DNA from: Escherichia phage BAU.Micro_ELP-22
Length of the DNA: 64,000 nt
Sequence record: OR699282.2
Direction: 5' to 3' (one strand)
Position 1 is the stretch's first letter. Each line of letters starts with the position of its first letter. Below, piece by piece: positions 27,808 through 41,456 of the stretch. The notes beneath the pieces were generated by a model. It searched no databases, was not told the DNA's origin, and was given only the letters and a program-made list of their open reading frames with translations. The position numbers were made by a program, and so were the translations under genes.

Positions 27808-27999
27808 ATGTTGATTTATCAAAGTGATAATATTCGTGTTATGCAGCATCCCTACTTACAAATCTTTGATGTGCAGCAGTATATGGAAGGTGATGACCCA
27901 AGAACCTATGGTCGTAAGTATGATTACTTCACTGTAAAGCAGTGTAAAAATATTAACGAAGTACGACAATTAGTTCAAGAACTTCAAAACAAAGGTTGA
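27808..27999 (+). CDS. hypothetical small protein
   Basis: ATG after AAGGAT; track ORF 27754 trimmed. Confidence 0.45.
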   Translation: MLIYQSDNIRVMQHPYLQIFDVQQYMEGDDPRTYGRKYDYFTVKQCKNINEVRQLVQELQNKG

Positions 28000-28025
28000 C
28001 TTCGGTCAGCCTTTTTTGTTATAAT
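27991..28025 (+). promoter_or_regulatory. terminator-promoter stem-loop cassette (PeSL-like)
   Basis: AAAGGTTGAC-TTCG-GTCAGCC + T6 + TATAAT; -35 TTGACT lies inside the stem. Confidence 0.65.
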
Positions 28026-28053
28026 TCTCTTAATAAATTAGAGGATTTTAATT

Positions 28054-28494
28054 ATGTATGTATATCGTTTTGAACTTAAATTTAGTTACATTGAACCTAA
28101 CTTAGATCCTGCACGAACTGTAGGTCCGTTTGCACGGTATTCAACTAGATACAGTACTAAAAATGGATTTGACCGTTTGTGCATGACCACACCTTCGCAA
28201 TTCCAACCAGAACCAACTGAAGATGGAATCTATTCAATCAAACGTGGCTGGGTATTTGGCTGTCAAAGTTTGAAAGATTTGTTCAGATTCTTCACTATGG
28301 ACTTGGGTAAATTGCATCGTGCTGGGTTTGCTATATCTGTATATGAAGTTCCAGACCACCATGTAGACATTGGTCGTAATCAGGTTCAGTACTATTGCGG
28401 TAGTGCTAAATTAGTTCGTATCATGTCAGTTAAGGAAGCAAAGGATGAGTTCCGACAAAGTAAAAGAGAAACACATGAGGTAATATATGGATAA
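28054..28494 (+). CDS. hypothetical protein
   Basis: 146 codons, GAGGAT SD. Confidence 0.55.
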   Translation: MYVYRFELKFSYIEPNLDPARTVGPFARYSTRYSTKNGFDRLCMTTPSQFQPEPTEDGIYSIKRGWVFGCQSLKDLFRFFTMDLGKLHRAGFAISVYEVPDHHVDIGRNQVQYYCGSAKLVRIMSVKEAKDEFRQSKRETHEVIYG

Positions 28495-28831
28495 AACTCA
28501 AATAGAATTAAAGAAATTTGTTTCATTCTATTTTCCTGATGACCCACGTAATTCACAAAAAGATATTGAATATTATAATATCCTATCTAAACAGTTAATG
28601 AGAAAGTTTCAACAGTGTTTAACTATATTCAATACAGATGGAAGACGTAGATACCGAATCGTTTCAATGAATGATGAAAACGCAAATTTCTTTGATTACG
28701 ATGTAGTTTTTAGAGCATATAATGATGATCGTATAAAATTAAATTATGATCAAATTATACTTGACCTGAATGTTATATGTGTTATAATCACTCACGTAGC
28801 CGAACTTAATGGTTTTAAAGAATGGTATTGA
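28487..28831 (+). CDS. hypothetical protein
   Basis: 114-codon ORF. Confidence 0.5.
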   Translation: MDKTQIELKKFVSFYFPDDPRNSQKDIEYYNILSKQLMRKFQQCLTIFNTDGRRRYRIVSMNDENANFFDYDVVFRAYNDDRIKLNYDQIILDLNVICVIITHVAELNGFKEWY

Positions 28832-28845
28832 ATAGAGGATAACAT

Positions 28846-29112
28846 ATGAAGCTTAAATTACAATATAATGGATTTACTTTACGTAATGATACTGAATTTA
28901 TTAATCGTTCTCCTGGTGCTGAACTGTTTTTACGAGAGATGAACATTCCTTTCATCATTACTACAGTGGGCGACCGTGAAGTTCTACAATATGCAGAGCA
29001 TCCGATTATTGATGTTCCTTGGTACTCTGAGCATATGTACATGGATATGGCACGTCGCTACAACTGTAAGTTCGTAGTTGAAGGTGATAAAATTACAGTC
29101 GAATTTAAATAA
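28846..29112 (+). CDS. hypothetical protein
   Basis: 88 codons, GAGGAT SD. Confidence 0.5.
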   Translation: MKLKLQYNGFTLRNDTEFINRSPGAELFLREMNIPFIITTVGDREVLQYAEHPIIDVPWYSEHMYMDMARRYNCKFVVEGDKITVEFK

Positions 29113-29124
29113 GGTAAATTAAAA

Positions 29125-29418
29125 ATGATCAGTACTTCAGTTAATGAAAGCATCGTCGCTGACGTAGAAATGGTTAAAGAATGTGCAGATGAAACTCTTC
29201 GTGATATGTACATTAATGATTTAATTACTGAATACGGTAGTCGTGGTGTACACGAATTTATTCGTTTAAGTGGAGAGTTGATGAAAAATCGAATTCGTAT
29301 GAAGCTTAACGTACATCCAAAAGCATGGGCATTTACATTAAAATACGCAGAAGATATTGTGAATTTGCGTCGAACTGAAGTATATGAACGTTTGCACAAT
29401 GGTATGTTAGATAAATGA
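29125..29418 (+). CDS. hypothetical protein
   Basis: 97-codon ORF followed by terminator. Confidence 0.5.
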   Translation: MISTSVNESIVADVEMVKECADETLRDMYINDLITEYGSRGVHEFIRLSGELMKNRIRMKLNVHPKAWAFTLKYAEDIVNLRRTEVYERLHNGMLDK

Positions 29419-29426
29419 TTGTAAAA

Positions 29427-39035: not shown

Positions 39036-39230
39036 ATGTTATTAGTATATTCAAAGCGTTTCTGGATTTCTTTCATTGTACTTTCGCTAATCGGCTTCGG
39101 TGTGAGTATAATCTTTTCGTGGGATGAATTGGGTACATGGTATTATGAAGTTCCGTGGTACATGAAGATAGCTCCTTGTTATGCGGCATTGTTCGTGTCA
39201 TTCCTTATTGTTGTCTTCAGCGAGGATTAG
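39036..39230 (+). CDS. small membrane protein
   Basis: 64 codons; preceded by degenerate PeSL remnant at 39003-39030. Confidence 0.45.
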   Translation: MLLVYSKRFWISFIVLSLIGFGVSIIFSWDELGTWYYEVPWYMKIAPCYAALFVSFLIVVFSED

Positions 39231-39336
39231 TTGATGTAGTATTTGCTACACCAAAGTATTTGGATATTTTAGATATAAACATGGACACCTGTTCTATCTT
39301 TCTGTATTATGTACATCACCAAATGAGGAATACAAC

Positions 39337-39696
39337 ATGGCATCTTTAAGTGAAATCGCAGAATACAACCCACTAACAATCTCAACAATTCAACGTACAA
39401 AAACTTTTTATTTCCGTCCTGCTGATGGATGGAAACGTGGAATGAATGGTGACTATCGAGTACTGGAAGATTCACTAATCGAGCGTATCAACTCTGAACT
39501 ACAGAAGTATGAAGGTGTTAAAGTTGTGCGTTCAACTTCTCGTTATTTTGAGTACTACATTGAGTCTTCAACTGTAAATGAAAACTCATCATTATCGGTG
39601 GACAACACTGATATTCTTCGTAATGCAGTTGGTATGTTATGCAACATTGCAGAAGAAATGGGATTAACTATTAGTACTATGAGTGAGTTAGAATAA
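39337..39696 (+). CDS. hypothetical protein
   Basis: 119 codons, GAGGAA SD. Confidence 0.55.
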   Translation: MASLSEIAEYNPLTISTIQRTKTFYFRPADGWKRGMNGDYRVLEDSLIERINSELQKYEGVKVVRSTSRYFEYYIESSTVNENSSLSVDNTDILRNAVGMLCNIAEEMGLTISTMSELE

Positions 39697-39699
39697 CAT

Positions 39700-39735
39700 A
39701 AAGGGTTGACTTCGGTCAGCCCTTTTTGCTATAAT
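39700..39735 (+). promoter_or_regulatory. terminator-promoter stem-loop cassette (PeSL-like)
   Basis: AAAGGGTTGAC-TTCG-GTCAGCCC + T5 + TATAAT; near-identical to 38417 and 41421 copies. Confidence 0.7.
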
Positions 39736-39761
39736 CATTTCATCAACTCAAGAGGCAACAC

Positions 39762-39995
39762 ATGAAACTATCTTTTATACGATTGGCTGAATTCTTTGGT
39801 ACTGATGTAATTACTCTACAACAAATCGCAGATAATACATCATTAACTACACAAGAAGTACTTGATTTAGATGTAATTCAGTGCGATAATACTTCCATCG
39901 ATTACAAAGAAGGTCTTGTCGAAAAAGATAAGATTCAAGCTAAAATTAATGGTGCTGGACGGGTTCAGTACTGGAAAGGAGTTTTAAGTAAATGA
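39762..39995 (+). CDS. hypothetical protein
   Basis: 77 codons, AGAGGC SD. Confidence 0.5.
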   Translation: MKLSFIRLAEFFGTDVITLQQIADNTSLTTQEVLDLDVIQCDNTSIDYKEGLVEKDKIQAKINGAGRVQYWKGVLSK

Positions 39996-41416
39996 AAATT
40001 TATATTGATAAATTTGGAACGACTTATGAATATTATGATTATACACATTATAATTCATATATACAAAAAAATCATAACCAAATGTCACCTTATTTGCATT
40101 ATGAAGATTTAATGGAACTATTCTCTAAAAATGTAAATTCTATTAAATTTATTGGTTTTAAAGATCCAACATGGAAAAGTTCACATACGCATGTGTATTT
40201 TGAATATGATAATATGGTATATGAACATTCAATATCAAATATCAAAACAAAATTCGCTGATCATAGATATAAACCAGGTAGAATATGTAGAACCTTGGAA
40301 CAAATTATAAATGAGTCCATTTATATATTTAAAAAATATGATAAATTTAATTTTCATAGCATTGCATCATTTAATGGAGCACGAACTATAATCAATTATA
40401 CAATTGAAGGACGTGAAAGAATATTTTCTATATCATTCAATTCATTAATAAAAGATTTTAAAGGGGGAAGCCCATGTTATTCATATGAAGAAGTAGAAAA
40501 TATATCTATAAAAAAATTAAATGAACATAATTTGAGATTTATCTCAATTAGTAAATTTAATGGTGTGTTTAGTTGTATTGAATATGAACAACCAACTCAG
40601 AAAGGAAAAAAATATGTTGATTTTAATATATTAATCTATAATGAATGGAAAGGTAATCTACCGAATATAACTAATGAAGAGGTGAATAATCGAATTTCAG
40701 AAAAAATGAAAAAACTAAATATCAATGAATATGAAATTGTAGAATATAACAGTACTAGGAGCATGGTTGAATATACAGTTGATGATATTTCATATACAAC
40801 TAGTTACGATAAGATTATGCATCCAACTTGGAAAGGTAATCCAAGATATACAAAAGAAAGAATAATAAAATTGTCGAAAAAATATTGCAAGGGTAAAAAA
40901 TTTCAATTTAATAAAATAATTGGTAATGTTAAAGGAATTAATACTATCATTGAATTAGAACTTGAAAATGGTATGTTTATATATCCAAAATTTATACAAT
41001 TAAAAGGAGGTTCTGACTTTAATACATCCACTGATGGTAAGATTTTAACAGAAATAATTTATCCTTTGTTCGACAATTATATCACACAAAAACGTTTTGA
41101 AAATTGTAGAAATCCTGAAACTGGATACTTGTTGCCATATGATTTGTATGTTCCAGAATTTAATTTATTATTAGAAAAAGATGGAGTGCAACATTACAAT
41201 CCAACAGCATATTTTAATAAAACATATGAATCATATTTGAAATTGAGAGAGAGAGATGAATTTAAAAACAAATATGCCATATCAAATGGTTATAATTTCA
41301 TGCGAATAGCAGATTATGAAGATCATGAAAAAATATTGAAATCTTTCCTTAAACTCATTGAAGAGAATCCAGGAAAGCAAATTGTGCAGATCTATGGTGA
41401 AGTACAAATTATCTAA
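39992..41416 (+). CDS. AT-rich repeat protein with C-terminal endonuclease-like (Vsr/PD-(D/E)xK-like) motif; possible homing endonuclease
   Basis: 474 codons, K/N/I/Y-rich; repeated PTWKGN modules; C-terminal PYDLYVPEFNLLLEKDGVQHY resembles D-x-Y-x-PE...IE-x-DG-x-QH nuclease motif (recalled). Confidence 0.6.
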   Translation: MKIYIDKFGTTYEYYDYTHYNSYIQKNHNQMSPYLHYEDLMELFSKNVNSIKFIGFKDPTWKSSHTHVYFEYDNMVYEHSISNIKTKFADHRYKPGRICRTLEQIINESIYIFKKYDKFNFHSIASFNGARTIINYTIEGRERIFSISFNSLIKDFKGGSPCYSYEEVENISIKKLNEHNLRFISISKFNGVFSCIEYEQPTQKGKKYVDFNILIYNEWKGNLPNITNEEVNNRISEKMKKLNINEYEIVEYNSTRSMVEYTVDDISYTTSYDKIMHPTWKGNPRYTKERIIKLSKKYCKGKKFQFNKIIGNVKGINTIIELELENGMFIYPKFIQLKGGSDFNTSTDGKILTEIIYPLFDNYITQKRFENCRNPETGYLLPYDLYVPEFNLLLEKDGVQHYNPTAYFNKTYESYLKLRERDEFKNKYAISNGYNFMRIADYEDHEKILKSFLKLIEENPGKQIVQIYGEVQII

Positions 41417-41420
41417 AACA

Positions 41421-41456
41421 AAAGGGTTGACTTCGGTCGGCCCTTTTTGCTATAAT
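41421..41456 (+). promoter_or_regulatory. terminator-promoter stem-loop cassette (PeSL-like)
   Basis: AAAAGGGTTGAC-TTCG-GTCGGCCC + T5 + TATAAT and conserved leader. Confidence 0.7.

Follow-up and report, generated by a model that had tools for sequence, protein, structure and literature searches.

Predicted composite terminator/promoter modules of the PeSL type at cassette boundaries of a Rak2-like jumbo coliphage

A short element repeated at gene boundaries of Escherichia phage BAU.Micro_ELP-22 is the subject of the present analysis, which covers one stretch of 64,000 nucleotides of this phage (sequence record OR699282.2; hereafter the window). The element is a module of ~45–75 nt that unites a transcription stop signal and a transcription start signal, and its sequence leads us to consider it highly probable that we are dealing with composite terminator/promoter modules of the kind described as promoter-early stem-loops (PeSLs), which would mark recombination-prone boundaries of gene cassettes. 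Nine copies lie within 13.5 kb of early-gene DNA (27,991–41,456) and none in the remaining ~50 kb of the window, and in six structural differences among ten sister phages the homology switches inside the element.

Positions 27–42 kb of the window are 97–99% identical to the Asteriusvirus genomes SHEFM2K, JP4, SP27, phAPEC6, 121Q and PBECO4, an identity that assigns the phage to Asteriusvirus, that is, to the Rak2-like jumbo coliphages of ~350 kb and not to the T4-type phages. As far as ~46 kb the genes of the window occupy the + strand, and from there on the − strand, as judged from GC skew and open reading frames (ORFs). The stretch that carries the elements encodes mostly small proteins of unknown function, together with a kinase (annotated as protein kinase in sister records, PHA00451 in that of G17), denV, an AAA ATPase, two virion structural proteins and endonuclease genes. 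In relatives this stretch is covered to 61–97% in 3–9 pieces, and the element-free flank at 12–27 kb to 100% in 2 pieces; the element-rich region is less conserved in content than its neighbour. BLAST finds the element at 7–10 places per ~350-kb sister genome, as against 6–9 copies counted in the element region. An assembly artefact was rejected, the repeat being shorter than a sequencing read and recurring at identical places in over 30 genomes that were sequenced independently.

Anatomy and conservation of the element

Copies were searched on both strands with GGGTTGACTTCGGTCAGCCC, allowing up to 3 mismatches and using 100 dinucleotide-preserving shuffles as the null. Eight matches appeared, all on the + strand (27993, 31235, 31418, 32762, 33847, 38421, 39703 and 41424), and none in the shuffles, so that the recurring hairpin design GGGTTGAC-TTCG-GTCAGCCC is present in eight copies against none expected by chance. 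A looser scan added a ninth copy, degenerate and lacking its 3′ arm, at 39005 (GATTGACTTCGGTCACAT). The nine copies counted in an earlier note on this DNA were in this way all recovered, each within a few bases of where it had been placed; they are numbered here 1 to 9 in order (Table 1).

All copies are co-oriented with the genes and every one is intergenic, following the end of a + strand ORF and preceding, by 40–60 nt, a GAGG or AGAGG and an ATG. The loop is TTCG in six copies, TAAG in copy 2 (31236) and TTCA in copy 6 (38422), and the stem contains one T-G wobble in most copies and two in copies 6 (38422) and 9 (41425). A run of 4–7 T's stands 3′ of each complete hairpin. The hexamer TTGACT spans the 5′ arm and the loop, TTGAC forming the inner 5′ arm and the last T the first loop base. 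A scan of positions 26000–44000 with the Rfam covariance models, on both strands, returned no match at E ≤ 1, and other terminators of the window (9105, 12932, 19884 and 29425) have unique, unrepeated stems.

The eight complete copies fold at −12.4 to −18.3 kcal/mol with z-scores of −4 to −6.3, and the truncated copy 7 does not fold (−3.2 kcal/mol, z −0.5). The opposite strand of the hairpins folds more weakly, with an internal mismatch, which together with the tolerance of G-U pairs indicates a one-directional signal acting at the RNA level, as expected of a terminator. The pattern of substitutions was followed in 52 distinct complete copies from the window, ten Asteriusvirus relatives, an Alcyoneusvirus contig and single copies of other phages, collected by a search that allowed up to 4 substitutions anywhere in an 18-nt core. 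The 5′ arm GGTTGAC was invariant in all 52, and all changes fell in the loop or at two 3′-arm positions opposite the T's of TTGAC, where only A and G exchange and a U-A or U-G pair is kept. In a 32-sequence alignment 98.4% of the cells were paired, a value reached by none of 500 shuffles, and the outer pair covaried (G-C in 16 sequences, A-U in 11, G-U in 5). A fixed 5′ arm facing a changing 3′ arm is the pattern predicted for a 5′ arm that must serve both as stem and as −35 hexamer. A G in place of A opposite the first T would also prevent a mirror-image TTGAC on the other strand.

Downstream of the hairpin, four copies combine TTGACT (at 27996, 38424, 39706 and 41427) with a perfect TATAAT after 18 nt, scoring 11/12, and weaker −10 hexamers follow the TTGACT at 31238 (TATCAT), 31421 (TATACT, 17 nt) and 33850 (TATGAT). 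A −10-like hexamer is consequently found 17–18 nt downstream in seven of the eight complete copies, with TG upstream of it in most; the pairing of TTGACT with TATAAT about 18 nt on, as first proposed, is exact in half of the complete copies and looser in the others that have one, and apart from this point the first description is accurate. Across the 52 copies, positions 23–31 counted from the start of the core read T-G-n-T-A-T-A-A-T, the first T, the A and the last T being best conserved, which is in sequence the signature of an extended −10. At least five of the six −10 bases stand at the same distance in about three quarters of 91 distinct downstream sequences, the weaker matches coming largely from bacterial hits and from one family of uncultivated virus genomes (UViGs). 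TTGAC/TATAATA promoters surround mapped transcription start sites in the distant relative PA5oct, and RpoD-like promoters cluster in the early region of CBB.

It might be asked whether the elements are terminators only, with TTGACT and TATAAT as by-products of a GC-clamped stem and of the AT-rich DNA around the T-run. The lack of a −10 in copy 4 and the 18-nt spacer would agree with this, as would the general frequency of promoter-like matches in such AT-rich DNA (92 found, 92.8 expected in shuffles) and the Bacteroidetes and some other bacterial hits that have no −10 at the right place. Nevertheless, the TTGAC of the 5′ arm never varies while its pairing partners do, and the spacing of a TGnTATAAT-like motif is preserved in Asteriusvirus, Alcyoneusvirus, Aeromonas phage 65, CR8, A9 and numerous genomes of uncultivated phages despite unrelated flanking genes. 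Promoters of PeSLs of the same class were moreover active in lacZ fusions of phage phi1 (PMC2839356), and we consider the terminator-only explanation very improbable.

Copies 6, 8 and 9, with their −10 hexamers at 38448, 39730 and 41451, share in addition a leader, TATAAT-(C/T)ATTTCATC...GAGG. It stands before denV (Pfam Pyr_excise, E 4e-15), before a 77-aa ORF of no recognised family (39762) and before the AAA-type ATPase gene, which bears out the earlier claim of a common 5′ leader upstream of these three genes. The leader is not fixed to its locus: at the locus of copy 8 the window carries CATCAACTCAAGAGG, SHEFM2K the denV type ATCGAAACGAGAGG, vB_Ec-M-J the ATPase type CATCAACTGATGAGG and 121Q a third form, and at the denV locus G17 and 121Q have a hybrid leader. 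Leader types thus move between loci among genomes that are 97–99% identical, a reshuffling that reads as a footprint of gene conversion between copies. The A-tract upstream of the hairpin may, as we infer, have several uses, since it could extend the stem against the U-run, resemble the proximal subsite of an UP-element (AAAAAARNR) and house stop codons.

The mode of action that these signals suggest is as follows. In RNA arriving from upstream, a GC-clamped hairpin of 10–13 bp, mostly with a UUCG tetraloop, would together with the U-run end the upstream unit. The duplex DNA of the same stretch would act as a promoter for the host sigma-70 polymerase, through TTGACT (5′ arm plus first loop base) and the extended −10 (TGnTATAAT) 17–18 nt on. 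Transcription would start ~7 nt after the −10, roughly at 38460, 39742 and 41463 for the three copies with the shared leader, and because of this distance the new transcript would not contain the hairpin. The new mRNA would open with the conserved leader of 20–25 nt (AUCAACU.../AUCGAAAC...GAGG), which carries the ribosome-binding site. Such a conserved 5′ end of early mRNAs may have a function of its own, for instance in stability, in translation or as target of a phage factor.

Crossovers at the element in sister phages

The homologous 17–21 kb were compared from SHEFM2K, G17, 121Q, vB_Ec-M-J, UE-S1, fEgEco12, ph0011, SD-2_S15, PBECO4 and JP4, with breakpoints taken from collinear BLAST segments. 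The six sites at which homology switches inside the element are 31236/31419, 32763/33848, 39704/41425, 39005/41425, an insertion at copy 6 in ph0011 and an insertion at copy 8 in JP4. UE-S1 and ph0011 lack the cassette enclosed by copies 2 and 3 and carry one hybrid copy; in vB_Ec-M-J and fEgEco12 three ORFs stand in place of this cassette. The cassette between copies 4 and 5 is likewise absent in UE-S1 and ph0011, where the single copy combines the upstream flank of copy 4 with the downstream flank of copy 5. UE-S1 lacks the cassette between copies 8 and 9 (39726–41420), and fEgEco12 and ph0011 lack 39020–41420, from copy 7 to copy 9; in these two phages the copy after denV, orthologous to copy 7, is complete. 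In the deletion cases the upstream flank of the single copy is 88–96% identical to that of the left window copy and 60–64% to that of the right one, and its downstream flank 80–100% identical to that of the right copy and 47–70% to that of the left one. The insertion of ph0011 comprises 3.35 kb with four ORFs, including a Dam-like methyltransferase, and is flanked by two copies; that of JP4 is a 612-nt ORFan preceded by a truncated copy and followed by a full one. A tblastn search of 50,697 phage records with the inserted ORF of JP4 matched JP4 itself only, and as an ORFan it is uninformative on translocation. Four further events have one end abutting the element by our own reading of the breakpoint lists, namely an HNH gene at copy 6, a 197-nt ORF at copy 8, an endonuclease gene at copy 9 and a deletion in SD-2_S15. 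The cassette shuffling proposed in the earlier note was thus put to the synteny check, and the homology switches together with the exchange of leaders between copies speak for it.

Near-identical direct repeats of 45–75 nt at many gene boundaries would on these grounds be substrates for the recombination system of the phage, possibly a RecA/UvsX-like one; a RecA-like recombination protein is packaged by the close relative phAPEC6. Recombination of two copies would delete the intervening cassette, recombination with foreign DNA bearing a copy would insert or replace one, and patchy exchange would homogenise or reshuffle the leaders. The two truncated copies suggest that one of the crossovers can be illegitimate, falling within the loop or the 3′ arm.

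These coincidences could also arise if ordinary terminators and promoters were kept alike by selection, had no role in recombination and met the ends of indels simply because both are intergenic. We regard this as unlikely, although several observations lend it weight and count at the same time against the modules as we interpret them. About 12 of the 18 variable loci in 25–45 kb do not have elements on both sides and about eight have none, by our own reading (for example 29.1–29.7 kb, 34588, 37.4–37.8 kb and 38885–39277 are not bounded on both sides), and the elements therefore explain only part of the plasticity of the region. Under a uniform null, 16 of 36 breakpoints (our own count) fall within 3% of the sequence (P ~4e-15), and part of this coincidence is expected because whole-gene indels must end between genes. 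A gene-aware null, in which whole-gene events of the same size were placed randomly at gene junctions, 9 of 36 of which carry an element, gave P = 0.002 for the four of eight whole-gene presence/absence events with both ends at element-bearing junctions, a value that rests on these eight events. For every event insertion and deletion are indistinguishable. The 22-mer hairpin occurs in unrelated phages and a few bacteria, so that selection by itself can produce it and its identity across lineages may reflect convergence on one optimal design instead of mobility; such a compact design has little freedom, since the TTGAC of the −35 supplies the closing C of a cUUCGg tetraloop. Concerning the promoter, a spacer of 18 nt is not optimal, a credible −10 is lacking in copy 4 and those of copies 2, 3 and 5 are imperfect. 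The near-confinement of the genomic copies to a ~14-kb stretch is derived from BLAST place counts and not from a full-genome scan, and neither for this phage nor for any Asteriusvirus did the literature yield mapped transcript ends, reporter measurements or assays of recombination. Selection alone, however, would not readily account for six homology switches inside an element of 18–60 nt, for single hybrid copies whose flanks match different window copies, for two insertions with a truncated left and a full right copy, for the exchange of leaders between loci of nearly identical genomes, or for the gene-aware P value.

Homing endonucleases could alternatively drive the turnover of cassettes, the repeats being merely landmarks for landing or cleavage. 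An HNH gene stands directly upstream of copy 6 in vB_Ec-M-J, fEgEco12, ph0011 and JP4 and is decayed in the window (38326–38413), and the homing-endonuclease-like ORF 39992–41416, which abuts copy 9, is replaced by different endonuclease genes in 121Q, G17 and PBECO4 and absent in SD-2_S15. Against this, the cassettes of copies 2/3 and 4/5, the insertion of ph0011 and the ORFan of JP4 are free of annotated endonuclease genes, and they end within the element and not next to it. Endonuclease genes account for two loci and not for the pattern, so that this explanation seems to us quite improbable; in its exclusive form it was rejected.

A miniature transposable element spreading by transposition, similar to miniature inverted-repeat transposable elements (MITEs) or to repetitive extragenic palindromes (REPs), would also be short, palindromic, multi-copy and intergenic. 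All copies, however, are co-oriented with the genes, each in the exact interval from a stop codon to a ribosome-binding site; target-site duplications, terminal inverted repeats beyond the hairpin and an annotated transposase in the region were all absent, and the copies are orthologous in position across genera, as before denV in Asteriusvirus and Alcyoneusvirus. Neither in the window nor at the loci examined was a copy seen inside a gene, or reversed with a target duplication. With these hallmarks of MITEs and REPs lacking, the transposon-like reading was rejected, and we give it hardly any credence.

Kinship with published PeSLs and distribution among phages

PeSLs were defined in phages RB49 and phi1 by Arbiol et al. 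2010 (PMC2839356) as a sigma-70 early promoter fused to a G/C-clamped stem-loop. Five positional subclasses were distinguished there, including one with the stem-loop overlapping the −35; some of the paired positions are G-T, and each element closes with a Shine-Dalgarno sequence and an ATG. They are concentrated in hyperplastic regions and associated with ORFans. Crossovers were mapped within or beside the stem-loop, those of RB49 to the loop; lacZ assays in phi1 revealed termination or attenuation by the stem-loop for PeSL211/210 and promoter activity for PeSL206/205, and adjacent copies give rise to mini-circles. Comeau, Arbiol & Krisch 2014 (PMC4122927) extended the class to T4/PST and KVP40/nt-1. 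For nt-1 they gave the stem consensus A3-4G3-loop-C3T3-4 and the promoter TTGYVH-N17-TAWWAT, and they described the elements as intergenic, clustered in the hyperplastic region and adjoining indels, with the −35 inside the 5′ arm or the loop.

The window elements share with the PeSLs of RB49 and phi1 a near-consensus sigma-70 promoter, a G/C-clamped stem-loop with G-T pairs, the Shine-Dalgarno sequence and the ATG. In RB49 and phi1 the stem-loop lies most commonly between −35 and −10 or over the −10, with an AT-rich block upstream, whereas every stem-loop of the window lies over the −35 and the spacer; moreover, the terminators, promoters and mini-circles of those phages were demonstrated by experiment and the corresponding activities in the window are predicted from sequence. 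With the PeSLs of nt-1 and KVP40 they share the stem design, a −35 in the 5′ arm or loop, a −10, a short leader, a Shine-Dalgarno sequence and intergenic clustering. They differ from these in their carrier, a ~350-kb Asteriusvirus outside the Straboviridae, in −35 and −10 hexamers nearer the E. coli consensus (TTGACT, TATAAT), in the greater uniformity of the copies and in the position of nearly all of them, going by BLAST place counts, in one stretch of ~14 kb. Read directly, positions 51–56 kb of nt-1 contain AAAAGGGTTGC-TTCG-GCAGCCCTTTTTT...ACATTTATCAACTTAGAGAGG and ...TATTATATCTACATCGAAACGAGA, more fully AAAAGGGTTGC-TTCG-GCAGCCCTTTTTTGTTATTCT-ACATTTATCAACTTAGAGAGG and GAAAAGGGTTGCACTATGCAGCCCTTTTTAGTATTAT-ATCTACATCGAAACGAGA, with leaders ...CATCAACTGAGAG and ...CATCGAAACGAGA. 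Both CATCAACT and the 13-mer CATCGAAACGAGA are common to nt-1 leaders and to window copies 9, 8 and 6, the sharing of the 13-mer with copy 6 having P ~0.007 by shuffling. The 30-nt core has 7 BLAST places in nt-1 and 8 in KVP40, and the exact window hairpin is found in other KVP40-like phages, such as D482 and VH7D.

The motif of promoter plus stem-loop, its −35-overlapping subclass, the intergenic position, the hyperplastic clustering, the indels ending at the motif and the kinship with published PeSLs are all found in the window, and the only discordant point is that the carrier is not a T4-like myovirus. This last is a property of the host genome and not of the element, and was therefore treated as an extension of range, not as a ground for exclusion. 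On every sequence-level feature the window elements would hence qualify as PeSLs. The identification put forward in the earlier note stands as far as the hairpin, T-run, embedded −35, −10 and leader are concerned, the architecture being the same as in nt-1, and has to be amended as to the carrier, which is Rak2-like and not T4-type. Since it belongs to a described class, the element does not constitute a system of a new kind. The novelty lies in its occurrence, with clear evidence of crossovers, in a lineage of jumbo phages distinct from the T4-like group, and in a hairpin and leader that are identical across families; the literature searched, which did not extend to subscription-only papers, contained no mention of PeSLs in Rak2-like phages. 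In the GenBank records of G17 and UE-S1 the hairpins are annotated as ARNold or other predicted terminators.

With ordinary intrinsic terminators and sigma-70 extended −10 promoters the elements have in common a GC-rich tetraloop hairpin with a U-run and the motif TTGAC(A/T)...TGnTATAAT; unlike those of enterobacteria, the signals of the window are fused in a 35-nt unit, occur as near-identical repeats and share a leader. A likeness may also be drawn to integrons, in which gene cassettes bounded by short hairpin-forming attC repeats are excised, inserted and reshuffled by a dedicated tyrosine recombinase that acts on folded single-stranded attC, the cassettes being promoterless. The modules of the window resemble attC in bounding cassettes by hairpin-forming repeats, but no dedicated recombinase is evident in the window, each module has its own predicted promoter and the exchange looks like short-homology recombination.

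A 47-nt core matches 174 phage records and the 30-nt core 252. Besides Asteriusvirus, with the 7–10 places per genome given above, they include other Rak2-like phages (RaK2, K64-1, phiKp_21, GAP32, Serratia phage BF, jumbo phages of Erwinia and Yersinia, Salmonella phage Munch), the KVP40-like Vibrio phages, Aeromonas phage 65 and its relatives, Vequintavirinae (CR8, CR9) and Brochothrix phage A9 (Herelleviridae, with a Gram-positive host). The exact 22-mer hairpin occurs in 21 stretches of IMG/VR contigs, mostly from genomes of 235–378 kb, and eight times in 596 Gb of bacterial genomes, where ~0.07 occurrences would be expected by our own estimate from the database size. A start region of the type CATC(G/A/C)AAAC recurs in several lineages. 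Searched by BLAST against all phages, the leader alone gave outside Asteriusvirus only chance-level matches with E of 0.01–10, which were not used.

In Brochothrix phage A9 the identical hairpin with the same G-U position (AGGGTTGACTTCGGTCAGCCCT, 92982–93007) follows the DNA polymerase gene and has TATTAT at promoter distance. The identical hairpin is also present in a few unrelated bacterial assemblies, namely Bdellovibrio, contigs of Bacteroidetes metagenome-assembled genomes (MAGs) and a Clostridia MAG, some of them without a −10.

The flanking genes are unrelated across families. Two candidates for a shared cassette were examined and rejected: the gene after a copy in D482 is unrelated to the ATPase of the window, and the ‘UV repair endonuclease’ after a copy in Aeromonas phage 65 is unrelated to denV. 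The sole orthologous downstream gene is the denV of Alcyoneusvirus (81% identity), which the element precedes there as in Asteriusvirus. With the other downstream genes unrelated, only the regulatory module is shared, and there is no evidence for a shared cassette across families. The shared leaders would favour common descent at least for the Rak2-like and KVP40-like phages, and the bare hairpin of Bacteroidetes and Clostridia shows that the core by itself can originate, or be maintained, as a simple terminator. We can only tentatively propose, as an idea more doubtful than probable, that the whole module of ~75 nt (A-tract, −35 hairpin, TGnTATAAT and the leader AUC(A/G)AAC...GAGG) could be a single ‘adaptor’ exchanged horizontally among families of large virulent phages, which would embrace Straboviridae of Vibrio and Aeromonas, at least three Rak2-like genera, Vequintavirinae and perhaps Herelleviridae. 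If so, any gene flanked by the module could enter each of these genomes by recombination and be expressed immediately.

Individual copies, neighbouring features and implications

The coordinates and signals of the nine copies and of the cassettes between them are collected in Table 1. At copy 1 the upstream ORF (192 nt in relatives, ending at 27999) has its stop codon TGA at 27997–27999 inside the −35 (T-TGA-C), so that coding sequence, terminator stem and promoter overlap. The −10 of copy 3 overlaps a T4-late-like TATAAATA (31449–31456) upstream of a virion structural gene, and the main role of its hairpin may be to insulate a late gene that lies amid early units. Copy 4 is probably a terminator only, a ‘half’ element.

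Table 1. Coordinates of the element copies and of the cassettes that they bound in the window
Feature	Position	Strand	Hairpin and fold	Promoter signals	Downstream sequence or content
Copy 1	27991..28025	+	27991–28014 (AAAGGTTGAC-TTCG-GTCAGCCTTT) and T-run; −14.0 kcal/mol, z −3.95	−35 TTGACT 27996–28001; −10 TATAAT 28020–28025	gene start 28054
Copy 2	31233..31267	+	31233–31256, TAAG loop; −17.6 kcal/mol	−35 31238–31243; −10 TATCAT 31262–31267	37-codon ORF 31299–31412 (+)
Copy 3	31417..31456	+	31417–31438; −12.4 kcal/mol	−35 31421–31426; −10 TATACT 31444–31449 (17-nt spacer)	virion structural gene 31475–32752
Copy 4	32760..32783	+	hairpin and T7 run; −14.3 kcal/mol	TAAATA at the −10 place	ORF 32824–33075
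Copy 5	33844..33879	+	33844–33869; −15.7 kcal/mol	−35 33850–33855; extended −10 TGTTATGAT, end 33879	protein kinase gene (end 34549)
Copy 6 and leader	38413..38481	+	A-tract and hairpin, TTCA loop, two U-G pairs; −17.3 kcal/mol	−35 38424–38429; TGCTATAAT with −10 38448–38453	leader CATTTCATCGAAACGAGAGG up to denV ATG 38482
Copy 7, truncated	39001..39019	+	only AAAG-GATTGAC-TTCG-GTCA left		3′ arm, T-run and −10 replaced by unrelated sequence
Copy 8 and leader	39700..39761	+	39700–39725; −18.3 kcal/mol, z −6.3	−35 39706–39711; −10 39730–39735	leader CATTTCATCAACTCAAGAGG up to ATG 39762
Copy 9 and leader	41421..41484	+	41421–41446, two U-G pairs; −16.8 kcal/mol	−35 41427–41432; −10 41451–41456	leader TATTTCATCAACTGATGAGG up to ATPase ATG 41485
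Cassette of copies 2–3	31257..31416	+			one 37-codon ORF
Cassette of copies 4–5	32784..33843	+			three small ORFs: 32824–33075, 33086–33409, 33419–33838
Nested cassettes of copies 7-8-9	39020..41420	+			part 39726–41420: 77-aa ORF and homing-endonuclease-like ORF 39992–41416

Other features of the window deserve mention in their own right. The core TATAAATA of T4-type late promoters occurs on either strand only twice in the 64 kb (30801–30808 and 31449–31456), where ~20 would be expected from base composition by our own estimate, and both occurrences lie just upstream of virion structural genes (30845–31228 and 31475–32752) that stand amid early-type genes and are bracketed by hairpins. The second of these genes is ~300 nt shorter in frame (site 32387–32442), encoding 425 aa as compared with 495–509 aa in SHEFM2K, G17, 121Q, PBECO4 and vB_Ec-M-J; the short form is found in UE-S1, ph0011 and JP4 as well, and this length polymorphism is not associated with elements. 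Near-identical, perfect sigma-70 promoters without a hairpin, TTGACAaac...agtactgTATAAT with a 16-nt spacer and a score of 12/12, are present at 26223–26250 and 36576–36603 and look from their sequence like a second family of early promoters. At 38326–38413 an HNH endonuclease gene is reduced to its first ~14 nt and last ~65 nt, which meet at a short direct repeat (AAGTGTAT); the intact gene, of 414 nt, lies directly upstream of copy 6 in vB_Ec-M-J, fEgEco12, ph0011 and JP4, and 121Q, G17 and PBECO4 have nothing there. Downstream of copy 9, the tandem paralogous ORFs 42323–42664 and 42664–43002 share ~70–80% DNA identity and vary in copy number among relatives (breakpoints 42451–42673), a variation to be expected if paralogues recombine unequally.

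A second, unrelated family of hairpin-plus-promoter-like modules occupies the − strand between 45108 and 57515, the most variable part of the window (22–71% covered in relatives). It has the form (G)CCAGTAC-loop-GTACTGG(C), followed by tttcttatttgtaTTAAATATAgTATAATgaataaaGGAGGg and an ATG, with module starts near 57515, 55120, 53910, 52648, 51839, 50624 and 47008 and a variant at 45133. Each module precedes one gene of a tandem series of paralogues of ~370–430 aa, all beginning with MLPF(A/G)RM and annotated in relatives as RCC1-like ‘regulator of chromosome condensation’ proteins.

PeSLs have been proposed as the way in which T4-like phages shuffle their accessory genes, and we found them documented only in three T4-like pairs. 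The same module, with crossover evidence at nucleotide level, in Rak2-like jumbo phages indicates that the mechanism is not confined to the Straboviridae. For annotation, the modules delimit operons and point to likely early promoters in genomes in which genes of no known function make up more than 80%; for engineering, they offer natural, insulated insertion points at which the phage evidently tolerates and expresses foreign cassettes. Because hairpin and leader are identical across families, it can be tested directly whether genes are exchanged through shared regulatory sequence or the design has converged. Overall, such modules may be a general way for large virulent phages to build and renew their early-gene ‘ORFanages’.

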